From assembly GCA_036405415.1 (NCBI GenBank), contig DASWXP010000002.1, positions 208,351 through 272,350 on the forward strand: a DNA stretch of 64,000 nucleotides. Reading direction: 5' to 3'. Origin of the DNA: Minisyncoccota bacterium (GTDB taxonomy: Bacteria; Patescibacteriota; Minisyncoccia; Phycocordibacterales; Phycocordibacteraceae). Below are positions 5,293 to 19,614 of this stretch, piece by piece. The position numbers and the translations under genes are program-made. Every line of letters begins with the position of its first letter. The first letter of the stretch is position 1. The notes under the pieces were generated by a model. The model was given only the letters and a program-made list of their open reading frames with translations. It did no database searches and had not been told where the DNA came from.

Positions 5293-5595
5293 AGGACGTC
5301 AATGATTAGAAATAACTCTATTCAATATAACCTGCTGAAAGAATCGATCTTTCCAAATCTGCTGGCTGTCTGGGACGATGTTGGAACCTGTATTCTCGAA
5401 TGGTAAGGTTCGCTTGGCGGGAACACTCTGAGGAGTGGTCCTCTACTGGGAAGCTAGTTGGTGCGGTAATAGCGTCACCAAGGCACACAGACCCAGTTTG
5501 CGGAGTCGGATCAGCACATACTCGATGGGTTCGCCCACTCGAAGCTGGTTCGGCTCCGTTTTCTGTTGCTGAGGACCTGGGACGATGTTGGAACT

Positions 5596-6429
5596 TCAGC
5601 TTTGCCCAGTCTTGTCCGCAGATAGCATGGTCCTCTCCCGCGCATTACTGCTAAGAAGCTGTATAAGCTCTTTAGTTTTCGGGAACATATTAATATTAAT
5701 ACTCATCTCTGTGGTTCCTTCATTTGTACGAAATAGAGATTGAGCGAGCAATCGATACATTTTCTCGGGGTCCGAGAGCAAACTGGTCGCAAGCCCATTC
5801 TTATGAGACTCCTGGCCTACTATTAATTCAATTTCCTTCTCGATCTCTTGGGCAAGGTCTTCAATAGGACGACTCGCAAGTCCGGCCTCAATCACGGTCT
5901 CTATCTTGTTCAGCTTCTTATACTTCTTGTTTGCGAAGGAGCTTCCTCCAAACAATGCGTCTGTATACTTGTTAGCAAACATCTTGATCACGTAATCAAA
6001 GGGCGAAAGGAAGAAGTACTCTTTATCTAAGACTTTTCCCGAGAGAATCGTAGAGCCCTGCGCAAGAGTGAAGTGATCTTCGACGAGCTGGTTGTCTTCA
6101 CGCACCTTTCTCGGTGAACTAATGTCTATATCTGAGGGGAGACCGAACTTATCCGCATTGGCTTTGAGGTGTGCCTGAGTTCTGTATAGGTCAGGCAATT
6201 CTGTGTCTACTAACTCACCATCGTCATTTATAAGTAAGTGGGCCTTTAGTTCTGTGGCGTTAGTGAACAGCAGGATCGCGCCAGAACCCGCAACAGCGTA
6301 TCTAAGCTTCCCATCTTCTATTTGGGCGTTATGCTCGGCAAATGAAAATATTGGCTGCAATGCACTCTCTGGAGATCTCTCGTGCGTGCGCGCAGCAACA
6401 GGACTGCTTTGCATCCTTTCGATACTCAT
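5596..6429 (-). CDS. hypothetical protein (island-associated)
   Basis: 277-aa ORF in AT-richer DNA with no recognisable motifs. Confidence 0.4.
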   Translation of the reverse strand: MSIERMQSSPVAARTHERSPESALQPIFSFAEHNAQIEDGKLRYAVAGSGAILLFTNATELKAHLLINDDGELVDTELPDLYRTQAHLKANADKFGLPSDIDISSPRKVREDNQLVEDHFTLAQGSTILSGKVLDKEYFFLSPFDYVIKMFANKYTDALFGGSSFANKKYKKLNKIETVIEAGLASRPIEDLAQEIEKEIELIVGQESHKNGLATSLLSDPEKMYRLLAQSLFRTNEGTTEMSININMFPKTKELIQLLSSNARERTMLSADKTGQS

Positions 6430-6452
6430 AGGATGAGTATCTCATAAAATAC

Positions 6453-6478
6453 TTGGCTGGCCGACTCGGATTCGAACC
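6453..6478 (-). other. tRNA 3'-end fragment (T-loop GGTTCGAATCC + acceptor 3' strand + G + CCA), Gln-type-like; putative att-site remnant
   Basis: The minus-sense read is GGTTCGAATCCGAGTCGGCCAGCCA. No complementary 5' acceptor strand or D/anticodon arms lie upstream, so this is not a full tRNA. It shares ...CCAGCCAA with the 3' end of tRNA-Gln at 19503. Confidence 0.4.
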
Positions 6479-6633
6479 TTGGTCGGTTAAGCCCGGGCTA
6501 GTCGGTTTAGGTCTTCTCGGGCTTCGCTAAACGACGCGTCTCGGGCGCTTCAAAAAAGTGACAAAAGTGACAGCCCTACGGATCTAATCTCATGAGTGAA
6601 CAAAGTCTTAAATGCTTTCATTATCGTGTTTCA

Positions 6634-6929
6634 ATATATCTATAGCCGCCCCCATGGCCGGGGACGACTACGGGTTGCGCTAGATAGGAATCTTGCGCTC
6701 CTCACGTACGGTGTACTGAGGGTAACGAGCAGCGTAAGCCGCTGTTACGATCTGTCCAGTGCGTACGTCACGATAAATGATTACCGTGCGGTAGCGAGGT
6801 TTAGTTTTCATTACTGAAGACCTTAGAGCTAATAATCGAACGACGCTGCCCCACAGAGGCAGCGTCTCTCATTTCTACGTGCGGGACGTCGTTCGATTAC
6901 CCCCTTAATGAGGACGGCTATAGATATAT
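6634..6929. repeat. 296-bp segment bounded by a 15-bp perfect (about 26-bp imperfect) inverted repeat ATATATCTATAGCCG / CGGCTATAGATATAT
   Basis: The left arm at 6634-6648 is the exact reverse complement of the right arm at 6915-6929, and flanking bases extend the imperfect match. The interior holds a 43-aa ORF and a nested 12-bp/9-bp stem structure (6836-6900). Confidence 0.6.
6680..6811 (-). CDS. small hypothetical protein (43 aa) inside the inverted-repeat-bounded segment
   Basis: MKTKPRYRTVIIYRDVRTGQIVTAAYAARYPQYTVREERKIPI; AAGG sits 8 nt upstream of the ATG. It was absent from the ORF track because it is under 60 aa. Confidence 0.3.
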   Translation of the reverse strand: MKTKPRYRTVIIYRDVRTGQIVTAAYAARYPQYTVREERKIPI

Positions 6930-6993
6930 AGAATCAAGGTGCTTCTACCGCTATCAATAGACTAGCATTTTCATAGAAACCGCTCCCTGTGCA

Positions 6994-7881
6994 CTAGTTA
7001 CTCCCTTTAGTTGTGGTAGAGGTCAGATTCGTAAAGTCTTGAAGTCCATGGATCTTTGCAATGGTAGCGAGATACTTCACGTAGCTAATGTCTGCTTGCT
7101 TAATTAGATAGGTTCCACCATCAATGAGAATCAGTACAGAATTTTCGGATTCATAGACCATGATTGCGTTGAAAGGACTCTGTACTCCAATTTCCTCACC
7201 ATTGAAATTTGAGTTTAGTCCGATACTTACAGCAACAGGTTTAGCGCCGCCAAGATATCTAGGGACAGATGAATACACAAAGAATGAGAACATGAAAAGT
7301 AAAATTGGCAGCGCAATGAGGAAGTACAGCAGACGATAGTAGGCGCCAAAGTAGATCACGATATTCTTCAAGGTAATCCGCATGGAATGCGCCTGCGCAA
7401 TCTCTTTATGAGATTTTTTTGCTACTGAGACACCAAAGAAAATCATTGCGACCCAGACGAAACCAAGAAAGTATATGAAGGACGGTGGGTTAATTGTTCT
7501 GCCAAGTAGAAGCGGAAATACAAAGAGCACAAAACTCAACGAGGAAGCCAGGCCAAATAATATGACTTTTAGTACGGAGATAAATATTGTCCTTAAGGCA
7601 CCCTTATTCTCTTTCAAATACTTATTTAGTACTTCTACTGCCTTAAGAAAACCGTAGAAGAAAGTTGATGGTAGAGCGACAAAAAAGAGAAATAGGCTGC
7701 CTGCGGTAAAGTACTGAACTTTCAAGAAGTTGAAGTCCCAGAAGCCGTAAAGCGCTAGATAGCTGTTCACGACAAGGAAGCCGAAAAAGGTCGAGCTGAC
7801 AGCAAACAAACTCACCCACTGAAGAGTGTTTGAAAGCCTGCTTTCTTGACGTGTGAACGGATTCATTTCGATAGTAAACAC
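6994..7881 (-). CDS. polytopic membrane protein, last gene of the LexA-headed defence-like operon
   Basis: 295 aa with at least 6 hydrophobic helices, on the same strand and 24 nt downstream of the Zn-ribbon gene. Confidence 0.5.
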   Translation of the reverse strand: MFTIEMNPFTRQESRLSNTLQWVSLFAVSSTFFGFLVVNSYLALYGFWDFNFLKVQYFTAGSLFLFFVALPSTFFYGFLKAVEVLNKYLKENKGALRTIFISVLKVILFGLASSLSFVLFVFPLLLGRTINPPSFIYFLGFVWVAMIFFGVSVAKKSHKEIAQAHSMRITLKNIVIYFGAYYRLLYFLIALPILLFMFSFFVYSSVPRYLGGAKPVAVSIGLNSNFNGEEIGVQSPFNAIMVYESENSVLILIDGGTYLIKQADISYVKYLATIAKIHGLQDFTNLTSTTTKGSN

Positions 7882-7905
7882 CTGATTCTTTCTGATTGCA
7901 AAAAC

Positions 7906-8991
7906 CTATTTGGACTTAACTAGCTTCAGTAAATCCTCCTCCCTTTCATATCCGTGCAGACGACCTTCCAGCATACCTAAACGATAACTAATACCATCGG
8001 TCATAAGTCGCCAGTTGGTATCCTGGAGCGTCTTTTTGATAAGCTTTTCCAGATCCTTGGAGCTGGCATACCCCTCCCTATCAGGCCGCTTTTCATACAC
8101 CACGAATGGAACGACGACATCCTTGGAAATCTCCGGGTTCTTGAATTGGAGCTTTATGTAGTCCGCCTTTTCGAGAACGGGAACGAGCAACTCTTCGAGT
8201 TCTATAATCTTCAGCTTCTTGAGCTTTGCGATTTTCTCGTACGATTCCTTGTTCTTCTCTTTCTCCTTTATCTCGTCCATAAGCCGCCCGATCCCCTCAA
8301 GGTTCGCCTTGGCTGCCATGAACTCCTGACCCTCTTTCTCGCTCAGGCAGAATCGCTCGCGATCCTTTTCAAAGTCTGGGTCTGACCTATCGACCATGCG
8401 CTCAATTTCTGAGATATCGGTATAGTCGCAATTCGGGCAGGTAACGACCGTAAACCATTTCTCGTCAGTAGACCTATCTTCCTCCACGACCTCTGCCTTA
8501 CATTTCGGACAGGTAGACTTCTCTCGCCTGAATTCTTCCCCATCGTCATAGAACGCACGACGCGGCATATGCTCCTGAGCACAGTCGTAGAAGAATAGGA
8601 CGCGATCCTTTCCGTCGAGTCCTGCCGAGTGATGGATCTTCGAGCTTACAAACATTAGACGTCCGCAAGTAAGGCAGCTTATGTCTTCAGGAGCTACGGC
8701 TGATTCGTAGAACTTATCGCTACGCTCGTCCCTTTGCATCCACTCCCTAATCGTCGCTTCTTTCTTCAGATATCTATTGCCCTTTATGAAATAGAGACTT
8801 ATACGCGTCACCGCATTGGATGTGCGTATCAGTTCATTCTCATCCACCTCTTTCTCAGGGTGCTTGTCCTTATACGTCTGCTTCAGTCCCTCAATGTCCG
8901 GCGTATGCTTCTCCCACGAACGGCATTTCTCGACAGTGTGCTTGTCGTAGAGGTCTGAGTAATATTGATGTGGTTTTAGACGAGGCTCCAT
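7906..8991 (-). CDS. Zn-ribbon-rich (three CxxC pairs) hypothetical protein, co-operonic with the CBASS-like genes
   Basis: 361 aa with CLTCG, CPKCK and CPNCD motifs; its start lies 1 nt after the E2-like gene stop. Confidence 0.5.
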   Translation of the reverse strand: MEPRLKPHQYYSDLYDKHTVEKCRSWEKHTPDIEGLKQTYKDKHPEKEVDENELIRTSNAVTRISLYFIKGNRYLKKEATIREWMQRDERSDKFYESAVAPEDISCLTCGRLMFVSSKIHHSAGLDGKDRVLFFYDCAQEHMPRRAFYDDGEEFRREKSTCPKCKAEVVEEDRSTDEKWFTVVTCPNCDYTDISEIERMVDRSDPDFEKDRERFCLSEKEGQEFMAAKANLEGIGRLMDEIKEKEKNKESYEKIAKLKKLKIIELEELLVPVLEKADYIKLQFKNPEISKDVVVPFVVYEKRPDREGYASSKDLEKLIKKTLQDTNWRLMTDGISYRLGMLEGRLHGYEREEDLLKLVKSK

Positions 8992-8992
8992 G

Positions 8993-9694
8993 TTATGGAC
9001 TTAGACGAATACTGTGCCTCTGAATCACGGAACGCAATTTTAATAAGGCAATCCATGCAGTGGGATGGCACTGCCTGATTTTTCCAGGACTAGTACAAAA
9101 GCACTTGCTCATTTCCGTTACCCGCTCTCTTCCCGAAAGAACCGCGCGTATGCGATCCCATTTTTTGTCCTTGCGCAGTTGACGGAGACACACCTGAACG
9201 TCCTCAACAGTTCCATTACCACTAGCGAAGGACTGGAAGACACCAGCTGCGCCATGCGCGTATTCTCCCCACGGCCACTTATGGTATTTGTCGAAATAAG
9301 TCTGCTCGTACAGGAAAGGGACTACGAGCTGATCGAGATACTTTATAAAAGAATAGCCTGTCCTTAGGAATTCTTGTTTCTCGACCGGTCCGCACAAGCA
9401 AGCATTACCACTCGTATAAAAGTGCCGATCTAGGACTTTTTCTATCGTGTCATCTTCCACTGTGAGGATAGGAATATCGTCAGCTTCCTTTCCTGGCTTA
9501 ATACGTATCTTATATGTCGCAGTAAGCACCTCACCTGGCGCAACCTGTCCGGACTGAATTAACCATGTAAAACCTGTCTTTGAATCGTACGCGGCAGTAA
9601 AAGTGAGACTGCCACTCACCTCACTACCGTCGGGACTAACGCTTAAGGTCGGGAGCTTTTCTTTAAGCCACTGCTTCTCACTTTCCGGAATCAT
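8993..9694 (-). CDS. prokaryotic E2 (UBC-fold)-like protein, candidate CBASS Cap2-short/E2-only component
   Basis: 'HFYTSGNACLCGP' resembles the E2 HPN..G.ICL active-site region. The start was set at MIPESEK (9694), overlapping the upstream stop by 17 nt. Confidence 0.4.
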   Translation of the reverse strand: MIPESEKQWLKEKLPTLSVSPDGSEVSGSLTFTAAYDSKTGFTWLIQSGQVAPGEVLTATYKIRIKPGKEADDIPILTVEDDTIEKVLDRHFYTSGNACLCGPVEKQEFLRTGYSFIKYLDQLVVPFLYEQTYFDKYHKWPWGEYAHGAAGVFQSFASGNGTVEDVQVCLRQLRKDKKWDRIRAVLSGRERVTEMSKCFCTSPGKIRQCHPTAWIALLKLRSVIQRHSIRLSP

Positions 9695-10592
9695 AGCCAC
9701 CCCAAGGTCGGTTTGGCGTGAAAGTATTCCCCGCCGTATATGCAACCGATGCTGCTGCCGCAGTGCGTACTGACTTCGAGGTTTCGCCTGTGTCCACAAA
9801 GGCCTCCTGCCAGTCTTCGACCTCATCCGAATCCTTGATTCTCTCAAGAACTACTTCAGCTGCCTGAGAAATAGCTCTCTTATCTGAATCTTCAACCAGC
9901 TGAGAAACAATGTTGTTTGTGTTCGCCGGATCAACAAGCTGCATAGAAGCAAAGTCATCCTTGAAAGACTCCATTACTTTAAGGAATGCCTTTCGAAGAT
10001 CACCCTTACTCTGATAACCAGAGAGAGCTTCTACAACGAACAGTTCCAGTACGAACGTCTTGATCTTCAAGTTATTACGATAAGCCCAGAGCTTGACCAG
10101 TCGAATCATCGGAACGCAGCCACTGTTCACGATATAATCAATATGTACTTTCAGATTCGTTTGCATTCTCTGCTTATCGCCGTTTACCAGATGGATGAAG
10201 ACGTCTTTGGTGTCTGTGATGAAACGTCCTGGAACCACGTCGATGTGGAAGTCGCCGGGAGCATCCGAGCCTTTCAGATCCAAGATACGTTCTGCCGATG
10301 CTTTGTGCGTAAGCAAATACTTCTCAGCAAGACGACTCGCCACGTCTTCGCGAATCTCCTTCAGAGAGCGTTCGTCTGAGCTTGGAAAATAGCAAACGAT
10401 GTCGAGGTCGTACCGATCACAAATCATTGTGCCCTTTCCCCTTGATCCGGCATATTTTATTACTGGATCATCACCAAATTCTTCACGAAGAAACTCGGTC
10501 ACTTCCTTCTTGTGCGCCTGCAAAGCTTCCTCCTGAGAATCCGAGAGATTCTGCGAAGCAAGCAGGTCATCCAAATATTCGTTAGGTGTCAT
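9678..10592 (-). CDS. cGAS/DncV-like nucleotidyltransferase (CD-NTase/SMODS-type Pol-beta NTase)
   Basis: 'IKYAGSRGKGTMICDRYDLDIV' is a GS-x9-DxD Pol-beta NTase motif very close to the CD-NTase 'GSyarGTaik.SDvDl' pattern. A third acidic residue lies in 'HIDVVPG'. The protein is 304 aa. Confidence 0.55.
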   Translation of the reverse strand: MTPNEYLDDLLASQNLSDSQEEALQAHKKEVTEFLREEFGDDPVIKYAGSRGKGTMICDRYDLDIVCYFPSSDERSLKEIREDVASRLAEKYLLTHKASAERILDLKGSDAPGDFHIDVVPGRFITDTKDVFIHLVNGDKQRMQTNLKVHIDYIVNSGCVPMIRLVKLWAYRNNLKIKTFVLELFVVEALSGYQSKGDLRKAFLKVMESFKDDFASMQLVDPANTNNIVSQLVEDSDKRAISQAAEVVLERIKDSDEVEDWQEAFVDTGETSKSVRTAAAASVAYTAGNTFTPNRPWGGYDSGK

Positions 10593-10601
10593 ACGATTCT
10601 T

Positions 10602-11771
10602 TTAGTTAATTGTTAATGCTAATTCGTACCCCTCTTCGATACGGTCATACACATGCAATTGAGGGCTTACATCTTTAAGTAATTCCCGTCCGCAAATTAC
10701 CGCAACAGGTGCAGGAACTGCAGCAAAGAGATGAAGCTTACTTTTTGCTCCGTGTTCGTTTTCAATTGCCCTGAGTGCGGACTGATATGTCCGCTGGAAA
10801 GCGTGCAAGGTCTCCTTGGTGGTCACAATCGAACGTCCTGGCTCTCTATCAACGGGAGCTATTTCATAAATGGTGAATTCAGCATCAATACTATTGGGCA
10901 ATGTGTCCGTCCCTATCTTGCCGCTCAACGATAGGAGTAGGGCGACTTTCTCCCGATCTGTACCCTGCTGAATTTGTTTACACTCAAACTGTACGGGATC
11001 TTCACTGCGCCACCGCCAGCCAGCCGGTTCATCTCTATGGTGCTGATAGAAATCTGACGCAATTTTATCACCCAAAGCGTTACCGAGGTGAACAAGAACT
11101 GGTATCCGGGCAAGAGGAAATACCGAAAGATGTCCGACTTGACGGCGTTCTATAGCGGGAGAAATCTGCCGTTCTACAACTTCATTCACTTTCGCGACAG
11201 CTGCAGTCCAGTAACTACCATCGACTTCCTGAGGCAAGGACTGCAAGTCAATCTCGATTGCTCGGTCATCACCCAGGTAACGAGGGTACCTACCTGCATC
11301 CAGAACAGCAGTTCGCACTTCCTCATTTGAGATAGAGACTGCGTCTCCTCGAATATTACCCATTATTCGAAGAACTACGGTCTCATGCTCGACACCCAAA
11401 CCTGTGAGGTACCTAATACGTGATTCGTGCTCGTGCTTATACTTGAGCAGAAGATCTTTCGGATACTGATCCACCTTATCGATAACTGCATGGCACTTGG
11501 TGCAAAGGAGCATGAGATTTGAAATCTGATTCCTTTCTGCAATTGGCATAGGATCATTACCCCGAGGACCACCCTTTGATCGCGCCACTATATGGGCGAT
11601 ATTAGAAAGCCTTACCTCATTGGTGGTCAGTTCATCTTCAAGCAGATACGCATTACATCCGTGAAATTCGCATCTACCACCTGCACGCGTCCACAGCTCA
11701 AAAACCACCGCGTCAGTGGCCTTAATCTTTGGAGCCTCTGTTGGCTCTGCTGCTGTGGCTGAGGTAGGCAT
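10602..11771 (-). CDS. Cap5-like effector: N-terminal HNH endonuclease + C-terminal ~280-aa sensor (SAVED-like) domain
   Basis: HNH motif: RCEFHGCNAYL...AHIVARSKGGPRGNDPMPIAERNQISNLMLLCTKCHAV. A large C-terminal domain follows with no obvious catalytic motif. Start set at MPTSATAAEP, 1 nt after the upstream stop. Confidence 0.5.
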   Translation of the reverse strand: MPTSATAAEPTEAPKIKATDAVVFELWTRAGGRCEFHGCNAYLLEDELTTNEVRLSNIAHIVARSKGGPRGNDPMPIAERNQISNLMLLCTKCHAVIDKVDQYPKDLLLKYKHEHESRIRYLTGLGVEHETVVLRIMGNIRGDAVSISNEEVRTAVLDAGRYPRYLGDDRAIEIDLQSLPQEVDGSYWTAAVAKVNEVVERQISPAIERRQVGHLSVFPLARIPVLVHLGNALGDKIASDFYQHHRDEPAGWRWRSEDPVQFECKQIQQGTDREKVALLLSLSGKIGTDTLPNSIDAEFTIYEIAPVDREPGRSIVTTKETLHAFQRTYQSALRAIENEHGAKSKLHLFAAVPAPVAVICGRELLKDVSPQLHVYDRIEEGYELALTIN

Positions 11772-11772
11772 A

Positions 11773-11982
11773 CTATTTCTTTCTACGGTTGTATGGCGAC
11801 TGATTTGGCGGCGCAAGCTTAATCTTCTTTTCAGAAGCCTTCGCACGTACTCCTGCTTCAGGCCTACCGAGCTTAAGCCCAATCACGCGCGTTGGCGTAT
11901 TACCCTTTGCGAGCTCTTTGAGCTGCTTCACCTCTTCGGGGTTCCACTTCTTACCTGCATTTTTAATGTACTTCTTCGTCAT
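11773..11982 (-). CDS. small basic protein (69 aa), possible DNA-binding/regulatory component
   Basis: Tightly coupled between the LexA-like and Cap5-like genes; 'WNPEEVKQLKELAKGNTPTRVIGLKLGR' is helix-turn-helix-like. Confidence 0.4.
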   Translation of the reverse strand: MTKKYIKNAGKKWNPEEVKQLKELAKGNTPTRVIGLKLGRPEAGVRAKASEKKIKLAPPNQSPYNRRKK

Positions 11983-11984
11983 AC

Positions 11985-12632
11985 CTAAAATTGATTCTTA
12001 ATAATTCCCACTACTTTCCCGCTCAAGAGGAATTCATCGCCCTCATGAATGAAGATTGGTAGGTATTTCTCCGTTGAATCTGCCTCCAGTACGATGCGGT
12101 TGTGCGCCTTATCCTCGCGGTAACGCTTAATTGTGGCGAGTCCGTCGATCACCGCCACGACAATGTCCCCATTTCGGTATGTCTTCTGTTCGCTATCAAC
12201 CAACACGAAGTCACCACTTTCAATGGTCTTACCTGCTTCCACTTCCGCCTTGTTCATCGAATCGCCGTCAGCAATAAGAGCATAGAGACCCTTCTTGTTG
12301 CGCGGAAGAAGCGAAGAGGAAATCTTGAGATACTGATCCACGTTCTCCTCGGCAAAGATGGCTGCGGGACCGCAGTTCGCTGCACCAACCACAGGCAGAG
12401 AGTAGATTGGGCTCGGACTTGCCTTGCTGTACCCCTTGTTTACGAGACGAATTATCCCCTCTTCCAGATTCATCTGAATTAGTCCCGCCTTCTCAAGCTG
12501 CTGAAGGTGGTACTTGGCGGTCTGGGGCTTTCCTGCCGCGCCAAGCATGTCCGCGATCTTGCGCAGGCTGTAGGAACCGAAGTCCTTGTGGGTCGCAATG
12601 AGGTCTAGAAGCTGCTTTTGTATTCGATGCAT
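11985..12632 (-). CDS. LexA-family repressor (wHTH + S24 peptidase), first gene of the operon
   Basis: N-terminal wHTH, Ala-Ala/Gly cleavage-region analogue 'VVGAANCGPAAIF', Ser nucleophile 'GDSM', and Lys in 'TIKRY'. Confidence 0.8.
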   Translation of the reverse strand: MHRIQKQLLDLIATHKDFGSYSLRKIADMLGAAGKPQTAKYHLQQLEKAGLIQMNLEEGIIRLVNKGYSKASPSPIYSLPVVGAANCGPAAIFAEENVDQYLKISSSLLPRNKKGLYALIADGDSMNKAEVEAGKTIESGDFVLVDSEQKTYRNGDIVVAVIDGLATIKRYREDKAHNRIVLEADSTEKYLPIFIHEGDEFLLSGKVVGIIKNQF

Positions 12633-12654
12633 ACCCCTATTATAGCAAATCTCA

Positions 12655-12705
12655 GAGTAAAATGCAAATATTTATTTGACATTTTACACTCTTAGCAATT
12701 ATACT
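12655..12705. promoter_or_regulatory. divergent promoter region with dyad GAGTAAAATG-N15-CATTTTACACTC overlapping a TTGACA-18-TATACT promoter
   Basis: Inverted repeat 12655-12664 / 12681-12692; plus-strand -35 TTGACA at 12676-12681 and -10 TATACT at 12700-12705. The region is a candidate LexA-like operator between the repressor operon and the ParB-MTase gene. Confidence 0.4.
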
Positions 12706-12756
12706 TGAGACACAGAAAGAGGCATCTAGTTAAAAGCCTGCGATACTAGCTCCCGA

Positions 12757-14091
12757 TTGAGGAGACGTTCCCTTGAAAGAGGCGCGGTTGACCTTACAAC
12801 TAGATGTCACTGCCGTATGCAAAGACTCTCTTGGACTACGGTCCAGAAGCGAGTGAACGACCTCGTTCCCCAAGATGTGAATCCTCGTTCTATAACCGAC
12901 CATCAGATGGCGGATCTTAAGCGCAGTCTTAAGAAGTACAACTTGGTAGAGATTCCAGCCATCGATACCAATGGAAATATTCTCGCAGGTCATCAACGTA
13001 TCAAAGCGCTTCAGCTTCTTGGCCGAGGCGATGAACTAATAGATGTACGCTTCCCTTCTCGGAAGCTCACCGAGCAAGAGTCAAAAGAATATCTCATAGC
13101 CTCCAACAAGCTTGGCGGTGATTGGGACTTTGATCTTCTGAAATCGTTCGACCTAACCACGCTTGAATTCGCGGGCTTCGATGAGATAGAGATCGGAGAG
13201 ATATGGGACAAGGATAAGGAAGTAGCAGACGACGAGTTCGATGTTGAAAATGAGCTGAAACAAATTAAGAAACCCAAGACTAAGCTTGGAGACGTAATCA
13301 CTCTAGGCCACCATAGAATCCTCTGCGGAGACTCGACCAAATCTGAGAACCTTAAGCGGCTCCTGGGCAATCAGAAGGCTTCAATGATTTACTCCGACCC
13401 TGTCTATAATCTCGACATCAATTATGACGGTGGGGTTAGCGGGAATAAGGAGTACGGTGGCAAGGTAAACGATTCTCGCTCCTTCGAGGAATATCGAACC
13501 TTCCTGAGAGACAGTATGGAAGCGGCACTAGCCGTGTCCTCGAAAGATACCCATGTCTTCTACTGGTGCGATCAGGTATATATCGGCGTGGTTCAGGAGA
13601 TCTATAGAACGCTTGGCATAACCAATAAGCGCGTATGTCTCTGGCTTAAGAACAATCACAATCCAGTCCCTAGTGTGGCGTTCAACAAGGTATACGAGCC
13701 AGTAGTGTACGGAGTTCGTGGAAAGCCTTATTTAGCTGACACCATGCAGAATCTGAATGAGGTCATGAACAAGGAGATGAGCTCAGGGAATGACCTACTT
13801 GATGAAGTAGATGTCTGGACTGCAAAGCGTCTTTCAGCGAAAGACTATGAGCACGCCACCTCTAAGCCGCCTCAGCTCCACGAGCGAGCCATTAAGCGCT
13901 GCACGAAGCCAGGAGACATCATCCTTGATAGCTTCCTTGGATCAGGCAGTACGCTTATAGCCGGAGAGTCACTCGGTCGCAAGGTTTACGGCTGCGAGCT
14001 TGAACCGCAGTTCTGTGATCTTATCGTACGTAGGTACGAGAAGATGACAGGTAAGAAAGCAGTGTATGAAAAAGACCAAAGCACTGCTTGA
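12757..14091 (+). CDS. ParB-like nuclease domain fused to N6-adenine/N4-cytosine DNA methyltransferase
   Basis: ParBc motif 'ILAGHQRIKALQLLG', MTase motif IV 'DPVYN' and motif I 'FLGSGST'. The start is ambiguous (12757/12817/12907). Confidence 0.8.
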   Translation: MRRRSLERGAVDLTTRCHCRMQRLSWTTVQKRVNDLVPQDVNPRSITDHQMADLKRSLKKYNLVEIPAIDTNGNILAGHQRIKALQLLGRGDELIDVRFPSRKLTEQESKEYLIASNKLGGDWDFDLLKSFDLTTLEFAGFDEIEIGEIWDKDKEVADDEFDVENELKQIKKPKTKLGDVITLGHHRILCGDSTKSENLKRLLGNQKASMIYSDPVYNLDINYDGGVSGNKEYGGKVNDSRSFEEYRTFLRDSMEAALAVSSKDTHVFYWCDQVYIGVVQEIYRTLGITNKRVCLWLKNNHNPVPSVAFNKVYEPVVYGVRGKPYLADTMQNLNEVMNKEMSSGNDLLDEVDVWTAKRLSAKDYEHATSKPPQLHERAIKRCTKPGDIILDSFLGSGSTLIAGESLGRKVYGCELEPQFCDLIVRRYEKMTGKKAVYEKDQSTA

Positions 14092-14650
14092 TAGGCTTGT
14101 AGAAGAACTCGAGAAAACTCCACTGATCCAAATTGCTTGCGACAAAGTCGGTATTTCCAGAAACACCTTCTATCGCTGGATGAAGGAGGACGAGGACTTT
14201 CTCGCTCGTGTTAATGAAGCCGTATCACTAGGTACGGGTCTTGTTAGTGACGTGGCCATAAGCAACGTACTGGAAGGCATCAAGAAGAAAGATGCCATGT
14301 ATACGAAGTATTGGCTAAGCCACAAACATCCTGACTTCCGGCGACCATATGTTCATAGGATCGATGCAGATGATCTCCTTCTACACTCTCGCCTTCTTGC
14401 TGAAGGAGCTCAGAAACATAAGGTTGAGCAACAGATAGCGAATTCACGCGGGTACATCGATGAAGAGATGTCACGGAGACAGGAAGCAGAAGTCGATGAC
14501 TTTATGGAGAAGTGGGATCACATCGTAGCCAAGGGAGACGAAGAACGCGCCAAAGTCTTATTCGAGAAGTGGAAGAAGGAATACGAGACTCAAGTGCCAG
14601 ACACTCCTCCACCCGACAATAAGAAGCCTCGTAAGAAGAGCTGGCGGTAA
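14066..14650 (+). CDS. HTH protein, phage terminase small-subunit-like
   Basis: 'IACDKVGISRNTFYRWMKEDEDF' is an HTH typical of terminase small subunits; the C-terminus is acidic/basic. Confidence 0.45.
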   Translation: MKKTKALLDRLVEELEKTPLIQIACDKVGISRNTFYRWMKEDEDFLARVNEAVSLGTGLVSDVAISNVLEGIKKKDAMYTKYWLSHKHPDFRRPYVHRIDADDLLLHSRLLAEGAQKHKVEQQIANSRGYIDEEMSRRQEAEVDDFMEKWDHIVAKGDEERAKVLFEKWKKEYETQVPDTPPPDNKKPRKKSWR

Positions 14651-14893
14651 TTACTCTTTCCCTTGATCTGCAAGAAGCTTCTTCCCTACCGGAGAATCGA
14701 CTGGGATCATACCCGTTGATCCACACACTGGACATGCTTTATATCGAGAGGTTGATCGCCATATTGAGTAGATAACTCCCGGAATGATGAAGCAGAGGAA
14801 TAGAACTATCTCTATCAACATACTTCCCTTAATTGCCGTACGAGGACTACCTACGTGTCCGCATGACGCACATATCATTTCTTGCTTAGCCAT
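14651..14893 (-). CDS. small Zn-ribbon membrane protein
   Basis: 80 aa with two CxxC pairs (CASCGH, CPVCGS) flanking one TM helix. Confidence 0.45.
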   Translation of the reverse strand: MAKQEMICASCGHVGSPRTAIKGSMLIEIVLFLCFIIPGVIYSIWRSTSRYKACPVCGSTGMIPVDSPVGKKLLADQGKE

Positions 14894-14901
14894 TTTGTTG
14901 T

Positions 14902-15058
14902 TGGTTCGGTTTTGTAATTCCCGATGGCCAGATACACAAAAATCCCGCCACCAGGAGGACCCTTACGAGTATCCCTACCTAAGTTTCCCTAGGTAACCGA
15001 ACCAACGACCCTGATGACGGGGTTTTTACGTTGGTTCGGATTTTCGACCATATCCTTT
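14902..15058. repeat. three copies of GTTGGTTCGG(T/A)TTT (two direct, one inverted) upstream of the recombinase module
   Basis: Copies at 14902-14916 (+), 14995-15006 (reverse complement) and 15042-15058 (+). Confidence 0.35.
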
Positions 15059-15227
15059 GGAAACCAAAGGGGTTAGGCCATTTTTATTTAATTGTAGGCA
15101 GGTTCCCCTGCCGTCTTCTAATGGTATCGCAGTTCTTAGGGTTTGCTAAGCCTGTCCACGACCATGCGACGAATCCCTAGTTCTGCATAGACTATGCACC
15201 GGCCACCTGTCTGGCATCAATTACTAG

Positions 15228-15530
15228 GTGGAGGACAGGGACAAAATACTAGATAAAGCAGACCATTACCGTTTTACGAAAGAAGCCGACAGTGCCTACC
15301 TGAACCGTATTTCCTTTCTTCCCCACCCTAAGGAAGATCTGAAGCGGGCGATTATTGAACGGATTGAGGAGCTAATAGCCACCTACACCTCCCTGGCCAC
15401 CTACGTCCCTGATGAACTAATTGATTGGCTCAATACCCATCAAAGAACGAATAAAAATCGACGGGTCTACCTGAAAGTATTACGAGACATGGAGAGCCTC
15501 CGAAAGGAGGCTCTTACTAAATTGAAATAG
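15228..15530 (+). CDS. hypothetical protein immediately upstream of the serine recombinase (possible accessory/directionality factor)
   Basis: 100 aa, ending 6 nt before the recombinase ORF. Confidence 0.4.
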   Translation: MEDRDKILDKADHYRFTKEADSAYLNRISFLPHPKEDLKRAIIERIEELIATYTSLATYVPDELIDWLNTHQRTNKNRRVYLKVLRDMESLRKEALTKLK

Positions 15531-15536
15531 CGATAT

Positions 15537-16859
15537 ATGCAAACAGATCAATTTTCAGCCTTAATAGGCCAAGCAAACATACCCATAGCAGTTAAGGTTA
15601 AGTACGTCCTCTATGCCCGTAAATCTACCGAGTCCGACGAGAAGCAAGCACTGTCCATAGATTCTCAAGTGAAGGAGATGATGCAAATAGCCGAACGGGA
15701 GAATCTGGAAATCGTAGATATAAGACGAGAAGCCCATTCAGCCAAAGACTCAGGGCAAAGACCCGTATTCAAAGAAATTCTAGAAGACCTAAGAAGAGAA
15801 CGATTCAATGGAATCCTGGTCTGGCATCCCGACCGTTTAAGCAGAAACGCTGGTGATCTTGGGTCAGTCGTAGATCTAATGGATGAGAGACGGCTAGTCC
15901 AAATACGCACGTATGGACAGACATTTACGAATACACCGAGCGAGAAGTTTCTCCTGATGATTCTGTGTTCCCAAGCAAAACTAGAAAATGACAATAAAAG
16001 TATCAACGTAAAACGAGGACTGAAGACGAGAGTAGAAATGGGACTCTGGCCAGCTCCTGCCCCAACTGGATATCTCAAAGAAAAACGAATGGACCGAAAA
16101 TGCGAGACATTGATAGATCCAGAACGAGGACCGATTATAAAGAAAGTTTTCGAGAAAGTAGCGTATGAGAAGTGGAGTGGCAGGAAGATCTATAACTGGC
16201 TCAAGTTTGATCTGAACTTTAAGACCGCTGCGGGAAACAAGAATCTGAGTCTAAGTAACATTTTCACCATCCTTGAAAATCATTTCTATTACGGAGTATT
16301 TGAATATCCGAAGAACTCGGGAAACTGGTATCAGGGCAAACACGAGCCACTTGTTTCCAAAGAGCTGTTCGATCTAGTTCAGGAGCAGGTTAAGAGCCAG
16401 TTCGTTAGATCGGAGAATAAGGAGTTTGCGTTTACTCGACTAATTACCTGTGGCCTTTGTGGCTCGGGAATAACGGCTGACGAGAAGTTTAAGAAGCAGA
16501 AGAACGGGAATGTTCATCGCCACGTCTACTACGGATGTAACAAGTCAAAAGATAGAGCGTGCAAGAGCGGCTATATAAATGAGCCAGCACTTATAGATCA
16601 ATTCGTGGAACTTATGGATCGAATAGATATTAGCGAGATAGGAGTTAAGGAAAAGATAAAGTCTGAGGTTGAGCGACTGAGGAAATTCCAGCAGTCTTTT
16701 CTGGGCATTAAGAGTAAAACTGAGATCAGGGATATAGATATACGGAACTATGCAAAATACCTTCTGCGCGAAGGAGCTGATACTGAAAAACGAGAATTAC
16801 TCGGATGTTTAAGGAGCAAGATTCTTTTAAAGGAGAAAGTCATTACTTTATCTCCATAA
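15537..16859 (+). CDS. large serine recombinase (resolvase catalytic domain + recombinase domain + Zn ribbon)
   Basis: 'YARKSTESDEKQALSIDSQ' catalytic Ser region, 'VWHPDRLSRN', and a C-terminal 'CGLCGSGITADEK...YYGCN...C' zinc ribbon. Confidence 0.85.
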   Translation: MQTDQFSALIGQANIPIAVKVKYVLYARKSTESDEKQALSIDSQVKEMMQIAERENLEIVDIRREAHSAKDSGQRPVFKEILEDLRRERFNGILVWHPDRLSRNAGDLGSVVDLMDERRLVQIRTYGQTFTNTPSEKFLLMILCSQAKLENDNKSINVKRGLKTRVEMGLWPAPAPTGYLKEKRMDRKCETLIDPERGPIIKKVFEKVAYEKWSGRKIYNWLKFDLNFKTAAGNKNLSLSNIFTILENHFYYGVFEYPKNSGNWYQGKHEPLVSKELFDLVQEQVKSQFVRSENKEFAFTRLITCGLCGSGITADEKFKKQKNGNVHRHVYYGCNKSKDRACKSGYINEPALIDQFVELMDRIDISEIGVKEKIKSEVERLRKFQQSFLGIKSKTEIRDIDIRNYAKYLLREGADTEKRELLGCLRSKILLKEKVITLSP

Positions 16860-16860
16860 C

Positions 16861-16888
16861 AAAAAGAGGCCCATATGGGCCTCTTTTT
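16861..16888. terminator. bidirectional rho-independent terminator AAAAAGAGGCCCATATGGGCCTCTTTTT
   Basis: Perfect 9-bp GC-rich stem flanked by A5/T5, between convergent genes. Confidence 0.7.
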
Positions 16889-16904
16889 GTTAGCTCTATG
16901 CTGT

Positions 16905-17531
16905 CTAGATTAGAATCAATAACAGTCCTGCTAGTGCCGCCATTCCAAAGTCCTCAATGAGAGTAATCTTGGTAAGCGGTACTTTAAGGAACGTACCCAG
17001 ACACGCACACAAGAATTCTTCCTTGCGAGCAATCTTGATAGCGACTCCAAGGCCGCTGAATAGCATAACAAGAAGCTCTACCCAGAGCAGAGCTGGGTTA
17101 TGTATTCCAGCAAGCATGAGGAGACCGAATGCGAGTTCAAGGAATGGATAGATATATCCATATCCCATCCACTTCTGCGCCAATAGGTCATACGTTGAAT
17201 ACCCCTCAGCGAATCCCTTTAGATCTAGGAGCTTGAAGCCTGCAAAGACGATAAAGAATCCTGCCATGAAGTACCCGATGGTACTGGTGAGCGCAAAGGT
17301 ATCGTTGTAGTAGTCAGCTAGAGATACGGCAATGGTTGATGCCGTCAGGAGGCTGAAGATAACGATAAGCGGTATATAACTCTTCCAAGTTATTGGACCC
17401 AGTCCTCGATCTTCCATTACATGCTTGGGCGTTGCTTTTTCGCTACCTTCAGGCACGAGAACCATCCCACACTTAGGACACTTACCAGGACCTTCCTGGC
17501 GAATCTCTGGATGCATCGGACAGATATACAT
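16905..17531 (-). CDS. heavy-metal-binding domain (CPMHPE...CPKCGM) fused to DoxX/MauE-like membrane domain
   Basis: N-terminal 'YICPMHPEIRQEGPGKCPKCGM' is a Cu/metal-binding HMBD-type motif. The remainder is 4-TM DoxX-like. Confidence 0.55.
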   Translation of the reverse strand: MYICPMHPEIRQEGPGKCPKCGMVLVPEGSEKATPKHVMEDRGLGPITWKSYIPLIVIFSLLTASTIAVSLADYYNDTFALTSTIGYFMAGFFIVFAGFKLLDLKGFAEGYSTYDLLAQKWMGYGYIYPFLELAFGLLMLAGIHNPALLWVELLVMLFSGLGVAIKIARKEEFLCACLGTFLKVPLTKITLIEDFGMAALAGLLLILI

Positions 17532-17533
17532 AC

Positions 17534-18007
17534 TTAGATTGGTTCGTAGCTAATAACGATGTGTTCCCCATCTTTGAGTACAGTGTTTTCGTAGGTATCT
17601 ACCCCTGTACCATCTACGGTAATACGTATTCGATGTGTAGCATCTGCTTTGTAGCTGAGGATCTCATCTTTGCTGAATGGCTGATCCCATACCGCGAAGA
17701 AGTCTGAGAGCGTGAAGTCCCGTTTCTCAGGAGACTCGACATGGATGACTCCATCAGGCGTATGCGTGTGGAGTGCTGTCATGCACGTCTGCTGAACGCC
17801 AATATTTGATGGAACAGGGACGTTCTCTCCATTCGCCACGATTTCGAGCATTGGATGAATATGGAATCCTCCGGCCATTTCGTCATCGCACAGAAGTGCT
17901 AGCTCACGATTCGTAAGTTCCCCTATCGGCTTCTGTGGACTTTGGGAGAAATACAGCAATGCTCCTATTACTGCAATAAGAGAAACAATAATAATTGCGC
18001 TCTTCAT
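17534..18007 (-). CDS. membrane-anchored hypothetical protein (His-rich motifs)
   Basis: N-terminal TM helix; HIHPM and HTHTPDGVIH could bind metal. Confidence 0.4.
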   Translation of the reverse strand: MKSAIIIVSLIAVIGALLYFSQSPQKPIGELTNRELALLCDDEMAGGFHIHPMLEIVANGENVPVPSNIGVQQTCMTALHTHTPDGVIHVESPEKRDFTLSDFFAVWDQPFSKDEILSYKADATHRIRITVDGTGVDTYENTVLKDGEHIVISYEPI

Positions 18008-18008
18008 C

Positions 18009-18407
18009 TTACTGTCCGTACCAAGACGTTTTCCAATCCTGCATCTGCTTTATCTCAGTGTTCTGGGCAGTAATAATGTTCTGCGCCATATCCTTAATCT
18101 CTTGATGCTTCGCATTCTGGAGCGCGAGCTGTGCCATTTGTACCGCCCCCTGATGATGCATAATCATCTCGGTAAGGAAGGCCTGGTCGAAAGCATCTCC
18201 TGTCTTACCGTTAAGTGCCTGCATCATTGAATCCATTTCTCCCTGCATGCCACTGTTCGAACCGCCCATCATTGAGCCGTCAGGCATCATATGTCCACCA
18301 GTTGCCTGCTGCGGAGCTACCGGTGCCTTACTTGCGGCTAGTGCATAGCCACCTCCTGCACCGATAATGAGCGCAATAAGACCAACTACAATTACATTCT
18401 TTTCCAT
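18009..18407 (-). CDS. DUF305 family protein with Met-rich segment (copper-resistance associated)
   Basis: 'FLTEMIMHHQGAVQMA' is the DUF305 signature; the Met-rich 'GGHMMPDGSMMGGSNSGMQGEMDSMM' resembles CopC/PcoC-like Cu-binding tracts. Confidence 0.65.
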   Translation of the reverse strand: MEKNVIVVGLIALIIGAGGGYALAASKAPVAPQQATGGHMMPDGSMMGGSNSGMQGEMDSMMQALNGKTGDAFDQAFLTEMIMHHQGAVQMAQLALQNAKHQEIKDMAQNIITAQNTEIKQMQDWKTSWYGQ

Positions 18408-18444
18408 AAGATTTAGTTAGATTGAGTAAGAAGAAAGTAGTCGC

Positions 18445-18813
18445 TTATGGAGCTTTTGGATTAAGAATGCCGCTGGAGAAAAGTTCTTGTAGAAGCGGTG
18501 TAGCAGGATAGAAGCGCCTACGATACCCGGGCGGGCGCTCAGGCTTCGGGACGGCAAGCCAAAACCATGCGAGCGCAAGAACCGGCACTATAAAAGTAGG
18601 AATTTCTAGAGGGAGAGCTGTAAACGTAGACTGCCAACTACTAAGATGATCAAAAATTGACATAGGACACATAGAAGTCTCGCCCTGCATGAATGGGCAA
18701 CCGCCCATACTGTGATCCATAGGCATAGCCATGAAAACCAACATAAAAAGTGGCACAAGCCCGACAAGTACAATTGACGTCCAGGACAGGAGCTTTTTAG
18801 CACTTATAGACAT
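18445..18813 (-). CDS. membrane protein with Met/Cys-rich motif, hypothetical
   Basis: 'MAMPMDHSMGGCPFMQGETSMCPMS' lies between TM helices. Confidence 0.4.
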   Translation of the reverse strand: MSISAKKLLSWTSIVLVGLVPLFMLVFMAMPMDHSMGGCPFMQGETSMCPMSIFDHLSSWQSTFTALPLEIPTFIVPVLALAWFWLAVPKPERPPGYRRRFYPATPLLQELFSSGILNPKAP

Positions 18814-18865
18814 ATGTCTCTAGTATACCGCTTCTGGTTCTAGCATAGAGCTATACTTTATTTAT

Positions 18866-19315
18866 ATGAAAATGACCAATATGTATGCTCGGTTCGGACT
18901 CATGATACTCATCTCCTTTGCTGCCATGTACATTTTGATGTACGCCATGGTGAATGTGCTTGGAAATGCGCTTCCGAACTGGAATCAGTTTTATATGGCA
19001 GGACTCATGACTTCCCCGATGATAGTGCTTGAAATGCTCTTCATGGGAACGATGTATGGGAATAAGAAATTGAATATAGGAATTATTGTTGGAGGTTTGG
19101 TTTTGCTTGTTATTTTTTGGATAAGTATTAGGCAGCAAGTCGGTATATCTGATGAGCAATTTCTGAAGTCCATGATTCCGCATCACGCCGGAGCAATCTT
19201 GATGTGCAGTAAGACTAAGCTTCAAGACCCAGAGCTGAAAGCACTCTGTACTGGCATTACATCAGGTCAGCAGGGTGAGATCGAGTTTATGAAATCAAAA
19301 CTAAATGGAATGTAG
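18866..19315 (+). CDS. DUF305 domain membrane protein
   Basis: 'MIPHHAGAILMC' DUF305 motif following three TM helices. Confidence 0.6.
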   Translation: MKMTNMYARFGLMILISFAAMYILMYAMVNVLGNALPNWNQFYMAGLMTSPMIVLEMLFMGTMYGNKKLNIGIIVGGLVLLVIFWISIRQQVGISDEQFLKSMIPHHAGAILMCSKTKLQDPELKALCTGITSGQQGEIEFMKSKLNGM

Positions 19316-19502
19316 GCGGACCTCGTGGCTACAGATTTAAAGCCAACTGCCCTCTGCTAAAATCCTCAACCATACTGAATAAGGTCTTTTGTTAGAGGGG
19401 TTCGAATCTTAACTACTTCGCACGGGATTAGGACTCGAATTTCGAGCTTCAAAATGCCTTTTGTTTATTGACGCGTCTCGAGCGCGATAACCTAGCACGA
19501 GT

Positions 19503-19576
19503 TGGCTGGGAGACTAGGGATCGAACCTAGATTGACGGGACCAAAACCCGGTGTCCTACCATTAGACGATCTCCCA
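19503..19576 (-). tRNA. tRNA-Gln (anticodon UUG)
   Basis: The cloverleaf was folded by hand. Acceptor is TGGGAGA/TCTCCCA, anticodon loop UUUUGGU, T-loop GGTTCGATCCC, with G73 and an encoded CCA. It aligns with E. coli tRNA-Gln. Confidence 0.85.
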
Positions 19577-19614
19577 ATACGGATATCCTGCCCGCAAACG
19601 ACGCTCCTCGCAAG

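Follow-up and report, generated by a model that had tools for sequence, protein, structure and literature searches.

A LexA-like repressor gene heads a predicted CBASS cassette on a probable integrative element of a Patescibacteria genome

This report concerns a run of seven tightly packed minus-strand genes in a 64,000-nucleotide stretch of contig DASWXP010000002.1, from a Minisyncoccota bacterium; the whole stretch is called the window, all coordinates follow its numbering, and L-numbers (L001 and so on) designate comparison loci. The run begins with a gene for a LexA-like repressor and includes genes predicted to encode a system of antiphage signaling based on cyclic oligonucleotides (CBASS). 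A sequence-only reading of the window had described seven minus-strand open reading frames (ORFs) here, and all of them were found where it placed them (Table 1). Independent gene calls on public contigs identical to the window, L105-L109 from SRR114491xx runs, give products of 215, 69, 389, 304, 233, 361 and 290 amino acids (aa), and the gaps from gene 1 to gene 7 are 2, 1, 9, -17, 1 and 24/39 nucleotides (nt). The motifs quoted in that reading are all present, namely GDSM (S125) and K169 in the repressor, GS49-50, D62xD64 and D118 in the nucleotidyltransferase, HFYTSGNAC99LC in the E2-like protein and, in the 361-aa protein, three CxxC pairs at 106, 161 and 185. The genes do lie in an AT-richer island, with a GC content of 0.41-0.50 over 5-20 kb as against 0.57-0.63 in the rest of the window. 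The genome is also of the type expected, that of the candidate phyla radiation (CPR): proteins 100% identical to the products of genes 2 and 4 are annotated 'Candidatus Paceibacterota', and the family of the 361-aa protein is almost wholly confined to Patescibacteria.

Table 1. Genes and other features of the locus, in window coordinates (HTH, helix-turn-helix; TerS, small terminase subunit)
Feature	Position	Strand	Remarks
Low-GC integrative island	5388-16886		GC profile; blastn against L001; left border firm, right border uncertain
Mem295, membrane protein (gene 7)	6994-7881, ATG at 7866	-	290 aa in public gene calls
ZN361 (gene 6)	7906-8991	-	361 aa
E2-like protein, Cap2-short (gene 5)	8993-9694	-	233 aa
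CD-NTase (gene 4)	9678-10592	-	304 aa
Cap5 (gene 3)	10602-11771	-	389 aa
p69 (gene 2)	11773-11982	-	69 aa, basic
LexA-like repressor (gene 1)	11985-12632	-	215 aa
Promoter-like site, LexA-like operon	12639-12668	-	TTTGCA, 18 nt, TG-TATAAT; 10/12 in consensus scan; predicted function
Putative operator	12654-12690		inverted repeat AGAGTAAAATG-N15-CATTTTACACT, covers the -35 box of each divergent promoter
Promoter-like site, ParB-methylase/TerS/recombinase genes	12676-12705	+	TTGACA, 18 nt, TATACT; 11/12 in consensus scan; predicted function
ParB-N-like domain + N6/N4 DNA methyltransferase	12817-14091	+	first gene of the divergent backbone operon; Pfam N6_N4_Mtase 2.1e-31; PHROG_498 5.2e-90; ParB-like 2.5e-24
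TerS-like HTH protein	14066-14650	+	Pfam Sf6_terminase 28.0 bits against a cut-off of 27; PHROG terS 4.6e-9
Large serine recombinase, probable integrase	15537-16859	+	Pfam Resolvase, Recombinase, Zn_ribbon_recom

By their content, genes 3 to 5 are predicted to be a CBASS of the E2-only (type II-short) kind, and profile searches uphold the earlier assignment of all three. The product of gene 3, encoded 9 nt upstream of the cyclase gene, is a Cap5 protein in which an HNH endonuclease is fused to a SAVED cyclic-oligonucleotide sensor (PADLOC CBASS endonuclease effector, 7.8e-119); the SAVED domain anticipated in its C-terminal part is indeed found there (Pfam, 3.6e-36). It aligns over its full length with solved Cap5 structures (8ysq, 6.8e-54; 7rwk, 5.4e-43), shares the HNH-then-SAVED order and a similar length with 7rwk, 8fm1 and 8ysq, and shows no difference of note from these effectors, so that it ranks as an ordinary member of its family.

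The nucleotidyltransferase of cGAS/DncV-like type (CD-NTase) encoded by gene 4 has its SMODS active-site residues aligned with those of CdnC. It matches PADLOC cyclase model PDLC00803 over residues 1-264 (2e-68), passes the Pfam SMODS cut-off narrowly (27.0 bits against 26.5) with a weak NTP_transf_2 match as well, and weakly matches CdnC (6p80, 1.1e-5) and SmCdnG (8hsb, 1.2e-4), including in the region past the catalytic core. Its family comprises at least 530 homologs, some of which carry an AGS-C domain; in the family loci compared, a SAVED effector is always encoded alongside the cyclase and an E2 usually is. In about 70 homolog C-termini that were inspected, a Ser/Ala-rich tail leads into the conserved motif FxPxxPW[GSAC], after which come 0 to 9 further residues. 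The E2-like gene overlaps the CD-NTase gene by 17 nt, and its product matches two PADLOC E2 models (2.8e-31 and 6.8e-30), with Cys99 of HFYTSGNAC as the candidate catalytic residue. No E1/ThiF or JAB (Cap3) domain was detected among the seven products with Pfam or PADLOC.

The closest described counterpart is the E2-CBASS of Serratia marcescens, SmCdnG-SmE2 (PMC12948482), with which the window shares the full set of a CD-NTase, a lone E2 and a cyclic-oligonucleotide-gated effector. In both, the E2 gene directly follows the CD-NTase gene and overlaps it, and in both the CD-NTase ends in a flexible tail whose conserved terminal motif could serve the E2 as a handle: the G397-G398 segment close to the C-terminal end of SmCdnG, and FxPxxPW[GSAC] here, for which such a role is plausible. 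The cyclases of E2-CBASS are long (SmCdnG has about 400 aa) and 74% belong to clade G, which is a tendency and not a strict rule (PMC12948482), whereas the cyclase of the window has about 300 aa and is weakly similar to CdnC and CdnG alike; furthermore, the E2 of the window has no sequence match to the solved SmE2, and the host is a CPR bacterium. The trio thus belongs to a known type, of which it is a new and somewhat atypical representative.

The first gene of the run encodes a winged HTH followed by an S24 peptidase domain (Pfam Peptidase_S24, 1.8e-19; PHROG_4 repressor, 1.3e-23). Its product aligns over its full length with Escherichia coli LexA structures (about 1e-9): residues 5-63 fall on the LexA DNA-binding domain, where Pfam HTH matches are sub-threshold, S125 and K169 fall on LexA S119 and K156, and the predicted cleavage site Cys87-Gly88 falls on the A84-G85 bond. 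Cys-Gly is a cleavage site of the UmuD type. Ser125 and Lys169 are invariant in all 46 other LexA-like proteins of the comparison loci, in which position 87 is always Cys or Ala and position 88 is Gly in 42. By family, gene 1 is therefore predicted to be a self-cleaving S24 repressor of the LexA/CI type, in agreement with the assignment made from the sequence alone. We also considered whether it is the host's own LexA, and rejected this: the protein scores 90.9 bits with NCBIfam lexA (TIGR00498), below the equivalog cut-off of 110.95, and its gene, which lies on the low-GC island, is missing from the sister island L001.

The basic protein encoded next, p69, is modeled as a three-helix fold resembling the GcrA DNA-binding domain and Myb, and would bind DNA. 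Its family has more than 3400 members; the best 120 listed are 70-100% identical and occur in sequences labeled CPR, Thermodesulfobacteriota and even Nitrososphaera. The NQSPYN tail hardly varies. The gene usually follows the S24 gene and is optional, being absent from L112 and L114 and replaced by one for a DUF2188 protein in L110, and in L088 (Thermodesulfobacteriota) a recombinase, a LexA-like protein and p69 are encoded together. From this context, p69 may be read as an optional accessory DNA-binding partner of the repressor. The gene also occurs alone amid transposase genes in L090-L092. It lies opposite the N6/N4 methylase gene in the window, and any link between p69 and methylation is pure speculation. 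A 69-aa gene that follows the LexA-like gene in L004/L005 was tried as a p69 homolog and discarded, as the product is unrelated at 25% identity.

The association of an S24 gene with this CBASS is not peculiar to the window. A metagenome scan for the CD-NTase family yielded 80 further loci, of which 42, from CPR and Bacteroidota, were distinct and had enough upstream sequence; in 26 of the 42, Cap5 has an S24 gene ahead of it, directly in 20 and across a small ORF in 6. The gene neighborhood is thus conserved in related genomes of two phyla: the order S24-(small ORF)-Cap5-CD-NTase-E2 is kept in the CPR loci L097/98, L111 and L112, and also in the Bacteroidota loci L110 (Saprospiraceae, with tyrosine integrases nearby) and L114 (Hanamia, inside a BREX/SMODS defense island), which lack the CPR backbone described below. 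In at least three of the remaining family members (L129, L175 and L184) the position of the S24 gene is occupied by one for a Peptidase_M78 protein similar to IrrE and CapP, with a small ORF ahead of it in L129 and L184 at the least. Because the M78 type displaces the S24 protein within a single operon family, the latter would appear to do the job of CapH/CapP, and this displacement is good comparative support for such a shared role. The sequence-only reading had drawn a parallel between CapH/CapP and a repressor built into the CBASS operon, and both parts of that proposal recur among relatives.

CapH/CapP, CapW and CapK/CapS are DNA-damage-responsive regulators encoded upstream of immune operons (bioRxiv 10.1101/2022.04.27.489752; PMC11662680; PMC13373217). 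The LexA-like gene resembles theirs in its place at the 5' end of an immune operon, in the predicted repression until a DNA-damage signal arrives, in heading other systems of the abortive-infection type as well and, for CapH/CapP-like pairs, in sharing one position within this CD-NTase family. It differs from them in encoding a single S24 polypeptide whose Ser-Lys self-cleavage classically depends on RecA and single-stranded DNA, without an M78 metallopeptidase, a WYL domain or a kinase. Pfam finds no M78 domain in the operon of the window, which is accordingly not a CapH/CapP pair, though position and predicted role are alike. Full-text literature searches returned no relevant mention of a LexA- or S24-type regulator of CBASS or SMODS systems, an absence that is no proof of novelty, and the papers checked on regulators of the CapH/CapP, CapW and CapK/CapS type mention neither LexA nor S24. 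Since it heads a CBASS family as a conserved gene, can change places with CapH/CapP and is also found on Thoeris-like cargo, the predicted S24 repressor seems to represent a new form of immune-operon control.

A candidate binding site lies between the repressor gene and the divergent methylase gene. The start of the latter was revised, ATG 12817 being more likely than 12757, so that the intergenic region spans 12633-12816 (184 bp). A dyad had been pointed out near 12655-12692, and it is real: its arms, 12654-12664 and 12680-12690, match at 10 of 11 positions and are 15 nt apart. Written as a pattern, the half-sites read GTGTAAAATG-N15-CATTTTAC, and when one mismatch to GTGTAAAATG is allowed, the two arms are the sole matches in the 64 kb. 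The 15-mer GTGTAAAATGTCAAA occurs exactly once per locus, always upstream of a LexA-like gene, in eleven loci belonging to several distinct elements (L014; L069 and L073; L097/98/100; and L105-109, which represent the window's own element), and is absent from L001, an island without the repressor. The two predicted promoters are sigma-70-like and stand back to back. The -10 box on the repressor side (TATAAT, in the region 12633-12644) ends 6 nt before the ATG, which suggests that the operon's message is leaderless or has a very short leader. The lambda cI mRNA made from PRM is likewise leaderless. On the other side, the predicted 5' leader of the methylase gene contains a 19-nt inverted repeat (12718-12736 and 12793-12811, 79% complementary, arms 56 nt apart) that may be a regulatory element of the RNA or of the DNA.

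The operon is part of an element whose organization recurs in relatives. To compare them, 80 loci encoding ZN361, the zinc-ribbon protein specified by gene 6, were fetched from GTDB species genomes, and about 88 loci were mapped in all. Their recurrent backbone consists of genes for a serine recombinase, the large terminase subunit (TerL), TerS and the ParB-methylase on one strand, and on the other of a variable run of genes ending in ZN361; ParB-methylase and ZN361 genes are neighbors in 39 of these roughly 88 loci. Where a LexA-like gene is present, it is the first of the variable run. The cargo that such genes head includes type I CBASS (L004/5), a ThsB-TIR protein with an 8xMP membrane protein (L014), a TIR protein with a caspase-like protease (L059, L069 and L073), PDC-M48B (L026) and, elsewhere, a methylase.

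The end of the run is marked by ZN361, a CPR-wide family encoded in 308 species. Directly upstream of its gene are found, in one element or another, Avs4 (E = 0), Hachiman HamA/HamB, Shedu SduA, PDC-S06, a TIR protein, HKD-Snf2, restriction-modification (R-M) systems of types I, IIG and III, Dcm, a KAP NTPase, a RelA/SpoT-domain protein, type I CBASS and the TIR-caspase pair, with a median gap of 12 nt and a gap of at most 40 nt in 45 of 63 co-oriented cases. In nine loci the slot is empty and the methylase and ZN361 genes are directly adjacent, two of these having just a 57-59 aa ORF call in between. Only 4 of 39 distinct loci of the CD-NTase family have ZN361 after the CBASS trio, and it is absent from L110-L114. 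Because of these varied upstream systems, the empty slots and the rarity of ZN361 after the trio, we take it that ZN361 is, by prediction from its contexts, the conserved distal anchor of a defense-cargo hotspot and not a Cap protein.

The exchange that is decisive for the reading of the last two genes is seen in L001, the same island in a sister genome, whose flanking DNA is about 86% identical to that of the window. Comparison by blastn shows that 6455-8991 (membrane gene and ZN361) is kept at about 90% and 12825-16807 (methylase to recombinase) at about 82%, whereas 8992-12824, from the E2 gene to the repressor gene and promoter region, is replaced by one DUF6119 gene with an intergenic region of its own.

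Taken together, these observations make it probable that what fills the cargo slot of this CPR integrative element is a regulated CBASS cassette, and we predict from sequence comparison that its LexA-like repressor is both the partner of the CBASS and the switch repressor of the island. Most likely, a repressor dimer would bind the GTGTAAAATG dyad over both -35 boxes and dampen both promoters. It would thus restrain its own operon (LexA-like, p69, Cap5, CD-NTase, E2, ZN361 and membrane protein) and the divergent ParB-methylase, TerS and serine-recombinase genes. DNA damage, or phage-generated single-stranded DNA loaded with RecA, would lead to self-cleavage at Cys87-Gly88 and hence to derepression of the CBASS, with more Cap5, CD-NTase and E2 being made; the methylase, TerS and recombinase (mobility) genes would probably be derepressed as well. 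If published E2-CBASS work is a guide, the CD-NTase would make a cyclic oligonucleotide upon infection, its binding by the SAVED domain of Cap5 would turn on the HNH nuclease and cause abortive infection, and the E2 would act on the conserved C-terminal tail of the CD-NTase to tune the cyclase.

Several points weigh against this interpretation. A detectable S24 gene is missing in 16 of the 42 CD-NTase family members. LexA-like genes also stand at the head of cargo other than CBASS, and in L101-104 a LexA-like protein only 30% identical to that of the window is encoded with p69 and no cargo at all; the repressor may serve the island first and the CBASS only incidentally. The spacing of the half-sites varies between elements, from 15 nt in the window to 6-7 nt in L069 and L073, so that the reader of the site, a LexA-like dimer or p69, is ambiguous. 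RecA-independent members are known among LexA-like proteins (PMC7101444). For the CBASS itself, the CD-NTase is atypical of E2-CBASS, with 304 aa and no clear membership of clade G, and scores far below the NCBIfam CBASS cyclase (equivalog) cut-offs; the E2-like protein has no match in Pfam or in PDB sequence searches. Finally, co-transcription, binding by the repressor, RecA dependence and anti-phage activity are features that we infer.

The most serious alternative, which is possible though unlikely in our judgment, is that the LexA-like protein, with or without p69, is only the island's CI-type lysogeny or immobility repressor, and that the CBASS is passive cargo expressed from the repressor promoter, with no specific partnership. 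The model for this is phage lambda, where rexAB is transcribed together with cI. There, as in SetR of the SXT-type integrative and conjugative elements, an S24 self-cleaving repressor is likewise encoded divergently from mobility or lytic genes, defense cargo is expressed with or near the repressor, and the repressor mRNA may be leaderless, which the 6 nt between the -10 box and the ATG recall here. The element of the window differs from both in its backbone of serine recombinase, ParB-methylase and TerS, with or without TerL and without structural or conjugation genes, and in having its cargo within the operon of the repressor, after the repressor gene and before a conserved distal one. The alternative accounts for the single operator shared with the methylase, TerS and recombinase genes, for the cargo-free L101-104, for the Thoeris-like, TIR-caspase, PDC-M48B and methylase cargo behind LexA-like genes, and for the joint presence of recombinase, LexA-like protein and p69 in L088. 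It does not lead one to expect that S24 would stay with Cap5, CD-NTase and E2 in Bacteroidota that are devoid of the CPR backbone, that it would precede Cap5 in 26 of 42 family members, that dedicated immune-operon regulators of the CapH/CapP kind would replace it at the same position, or that elements with R-M, KAP or DUF6119 cargo would mostly go without a repressor. Moreover, control of the island and control of the CBASS are compatible with each other.

A separate question is whether ZN361 has a part in defense itself, as a stand-alone system, as a common downstream helper or as a regulator of whatever system lies upstream. We consider this rather improbable, and somewhat less credible than the passive-cargo alternative. 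In its favor are the short gaps and common orientation with diverse defense systems, and its place beside defense genes even where no methylase, TerS or recombinase backbone is found within 10 kb (Avs4 in L008; Dcm in L009 and L019). The protein is also strongly conserved (40-90% identity), with invariant Cys ligands at C106/109, C137, C161/164, C185/188 and C215, and as it is found in only 4 loci of IMG/VR, it is no common phage gene. Against these stand the absence of any homology match to known defense proteins in PADLOC, PHROGs or NCBIfam, a structural model that is confident yet has no informative neighbor, the short gaps expected anyway in compact CPR genomes, and the nine elements in which ZN361 sits alone next to the methylase with no defense gene upstream.

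Far less probable still is the view taken in the sequence-only reading, that all seven genes form one extended CBASS-like system in which ZN361 and the membrane protein would count as new Cap accessories or effectors. What holds of the proposed seven-gene operon is the tight packing, with 1 nt between E2 and ZN361 and 24-39 nt to the membrane gene, and the LexA-p69-Cap5-CD-NTase-E2-ZN361 order does recur in L097/98, L115, L117, L119 and L120. The inclusion of the last two genes in the CBASS does not hold, and comparative data largely refute it: besides its rarity after the trio and its absence from L110-L114, ZN361 adjoins at least 12 other kinds of defense system at equally short gaps, L001 retains the ZN361-membrane pair with the CBASS block gone, and unrelated genes take the place of the membrane gene in L097. 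The membrane protein itself, Mem295, has about five hydrophobic or transmembrane segments by hydropathy and no family match in Pfam, PADLOC, PHROGs or NCBIfam, and among the loci fetched its homologs are limited to the closest sister islands (L001-L003 and L105/106); we predict that it is variable island cargo and not part of the CBASS. Lastly, a minimal or antitoxin-type nucleotidyltransferase in a toxin-antitoxin-like module without cyclic-oligonucleotide signaling, an identity suggested by the short 304-aa protein, the marginal SMODS and weak NTP_transf_2 matches and the low NCBIfam scores, is hardly conceivable and was rejected on the extent of the PADLOC cyclase match and the alignment with CdnC and SmCdnG beyond the catalytic core, to which are added the invariably adjacent SAVED effector, the usual E2 and, in some family members, the AGS-C domain typical of CD-NTases.

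Concerning the island that would harbor this regulated cassette, its left border is set by the homology with the flank of L001, which extends to 5387 (blastn), the end of the first copy of an 18-nt direct repeat, CTGGGACGATGTTGGAAC, at 5370-5387 and 5577-5594. Two copies, separated by about 435 bp, occur in L001 too, and the repeat may be a remnant of an attachment (att) site or may point to tandem integration. No repeat of at least 12 nt, direct or inverted, links the left border to 16780-19800, the only match being a chance-level 11-mer. At the right, three public contigs break 27 nt past the stop codon of the recombinase gene, and low GC runs on to a tRNA-Gln at 19503-19576 (tRNA scan). Beyond the recombinase, a low-GC block at 16905-19315 encodes three metal-related proteins, one HMBD-MauE and two DUF305, and on the same side related elements encode a Cu-ATPase, MerF, DsbA or a cupredoxin. 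This suggests a second cargo zone beyond the recombinase, in an island that possibly reaches the tRNA-Gln gene.

Further small genes accompany the backbone. TerL (PHROG_38, 2e-83) is encoded next to TerS in many relatives, such as L014, L026 and L058, and is missing from both the island of the window and L001, with only small ORFs at the corresponding position, 14650-15537. One of these, 14651-14893 on the minus strand, lies antisense between the TerS-like and recombinase genes and encodes a Pmp3/LITAF-like protein of 80 aa, with a zinc ribbon and a single transmembrane segment, that is 97% conserved in L001. At the other end, 5388-6454 differs from L001, which has two small minus-strand ORFs there; in the window, 5596-6429 is a 277-aa ORF for which neither a match in Pfam, PADLOC, PHROGs or NCBIfam nor a relative in the fetched loci was found.

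Among the related elements, L069, L073 and L059 have a LexA-like gene, with or without p69, followed by genes for ThsB-like TIR and caspase-like (Peptidase_C14) proteins, an arrangement reminiscent of TIR-caspase immunity that may constitute a further SOS-gated system. In L004/L005, the ZN361 homolog is preceded by an S24 repressor, the unrelated 69-aa protein, an effector with one transmembrane segment and a CD-NTase with an AGS-C domain, which make up a type I CBASS, and the gene directly downstream of the homolog is for a reverse transcriptase (RVT_1).

In its gene content the island is similar to phage satellites such as the phage-inducible chromosomal islands (PICIs): it has a probable integrase, TerS and a repressor whose promoter is divergent. 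The gene maps of the window and of its relatives show no capsid or tail genes, and no primase or replicase was recognized. P2/P4 hotspots and PICIs are likewise small, integrative and TerS-bearing, with a fixed slot between backbone genes that holds a different defense system in each relative; the element of the window differs from them in its host phylum (CPR/Patescibacteria) and in its anchors, ParB-methylase and ZN361. Defense-rich genomic islands and a high density of defense genes have been noted in CPR bacteria, in passages of two studies (PMC12455944; PMC12259885) that, where found by keyword, do not describe a family of elements bounded by ZN361. The CPR defense hotspot bounded by the methylase and ZN361 is thus apparently undescribed.

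Extending the argument beyond this locus, we put forward a broader proposal, as a tentative one that may well prove too wide. S24 repressors of the LexA/CI type, often accompanied by a small GcrA/Myb-like or DUF2188 protein, would constitute a fourth, RecA-linked class of DNA-damage regulators of abortive-infection operons (for example CBASS and Thoeris-like TIR systems). In Patescibacteria they would at the same time act as the switch of widespread, undescribed satellite-like elements, whose repressor operon would be a plug-in slot for defense genes bounded by ZN361, itself perhaps active in defense or in cassette exchange.

The locus is not a categorically new system; what it offers is a testable new class of regulator for CBASS and a useful hotspot. 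It also corrects the view of the two terminal genes as encoding new Cap proteins. ZN361, with its 308 species, and the ParB-methylase form an anchor pair with which new defense systems can be mined in a phylum where few have been characterized. If our interpretation is true, a single self-cleaving repressor ties CBASS expression directly to the classical RecA/SOS signal, and represents a new class beside CapH/CapP, CapW and CapK/CapS that, from the comparative data, is interchangeable with CapH/CapP inside one CBASS family. The locus also shows that ultra-small CPR bacteria have predicted abortive-infection systems on small mobile elements whose cargo slot is fixed.

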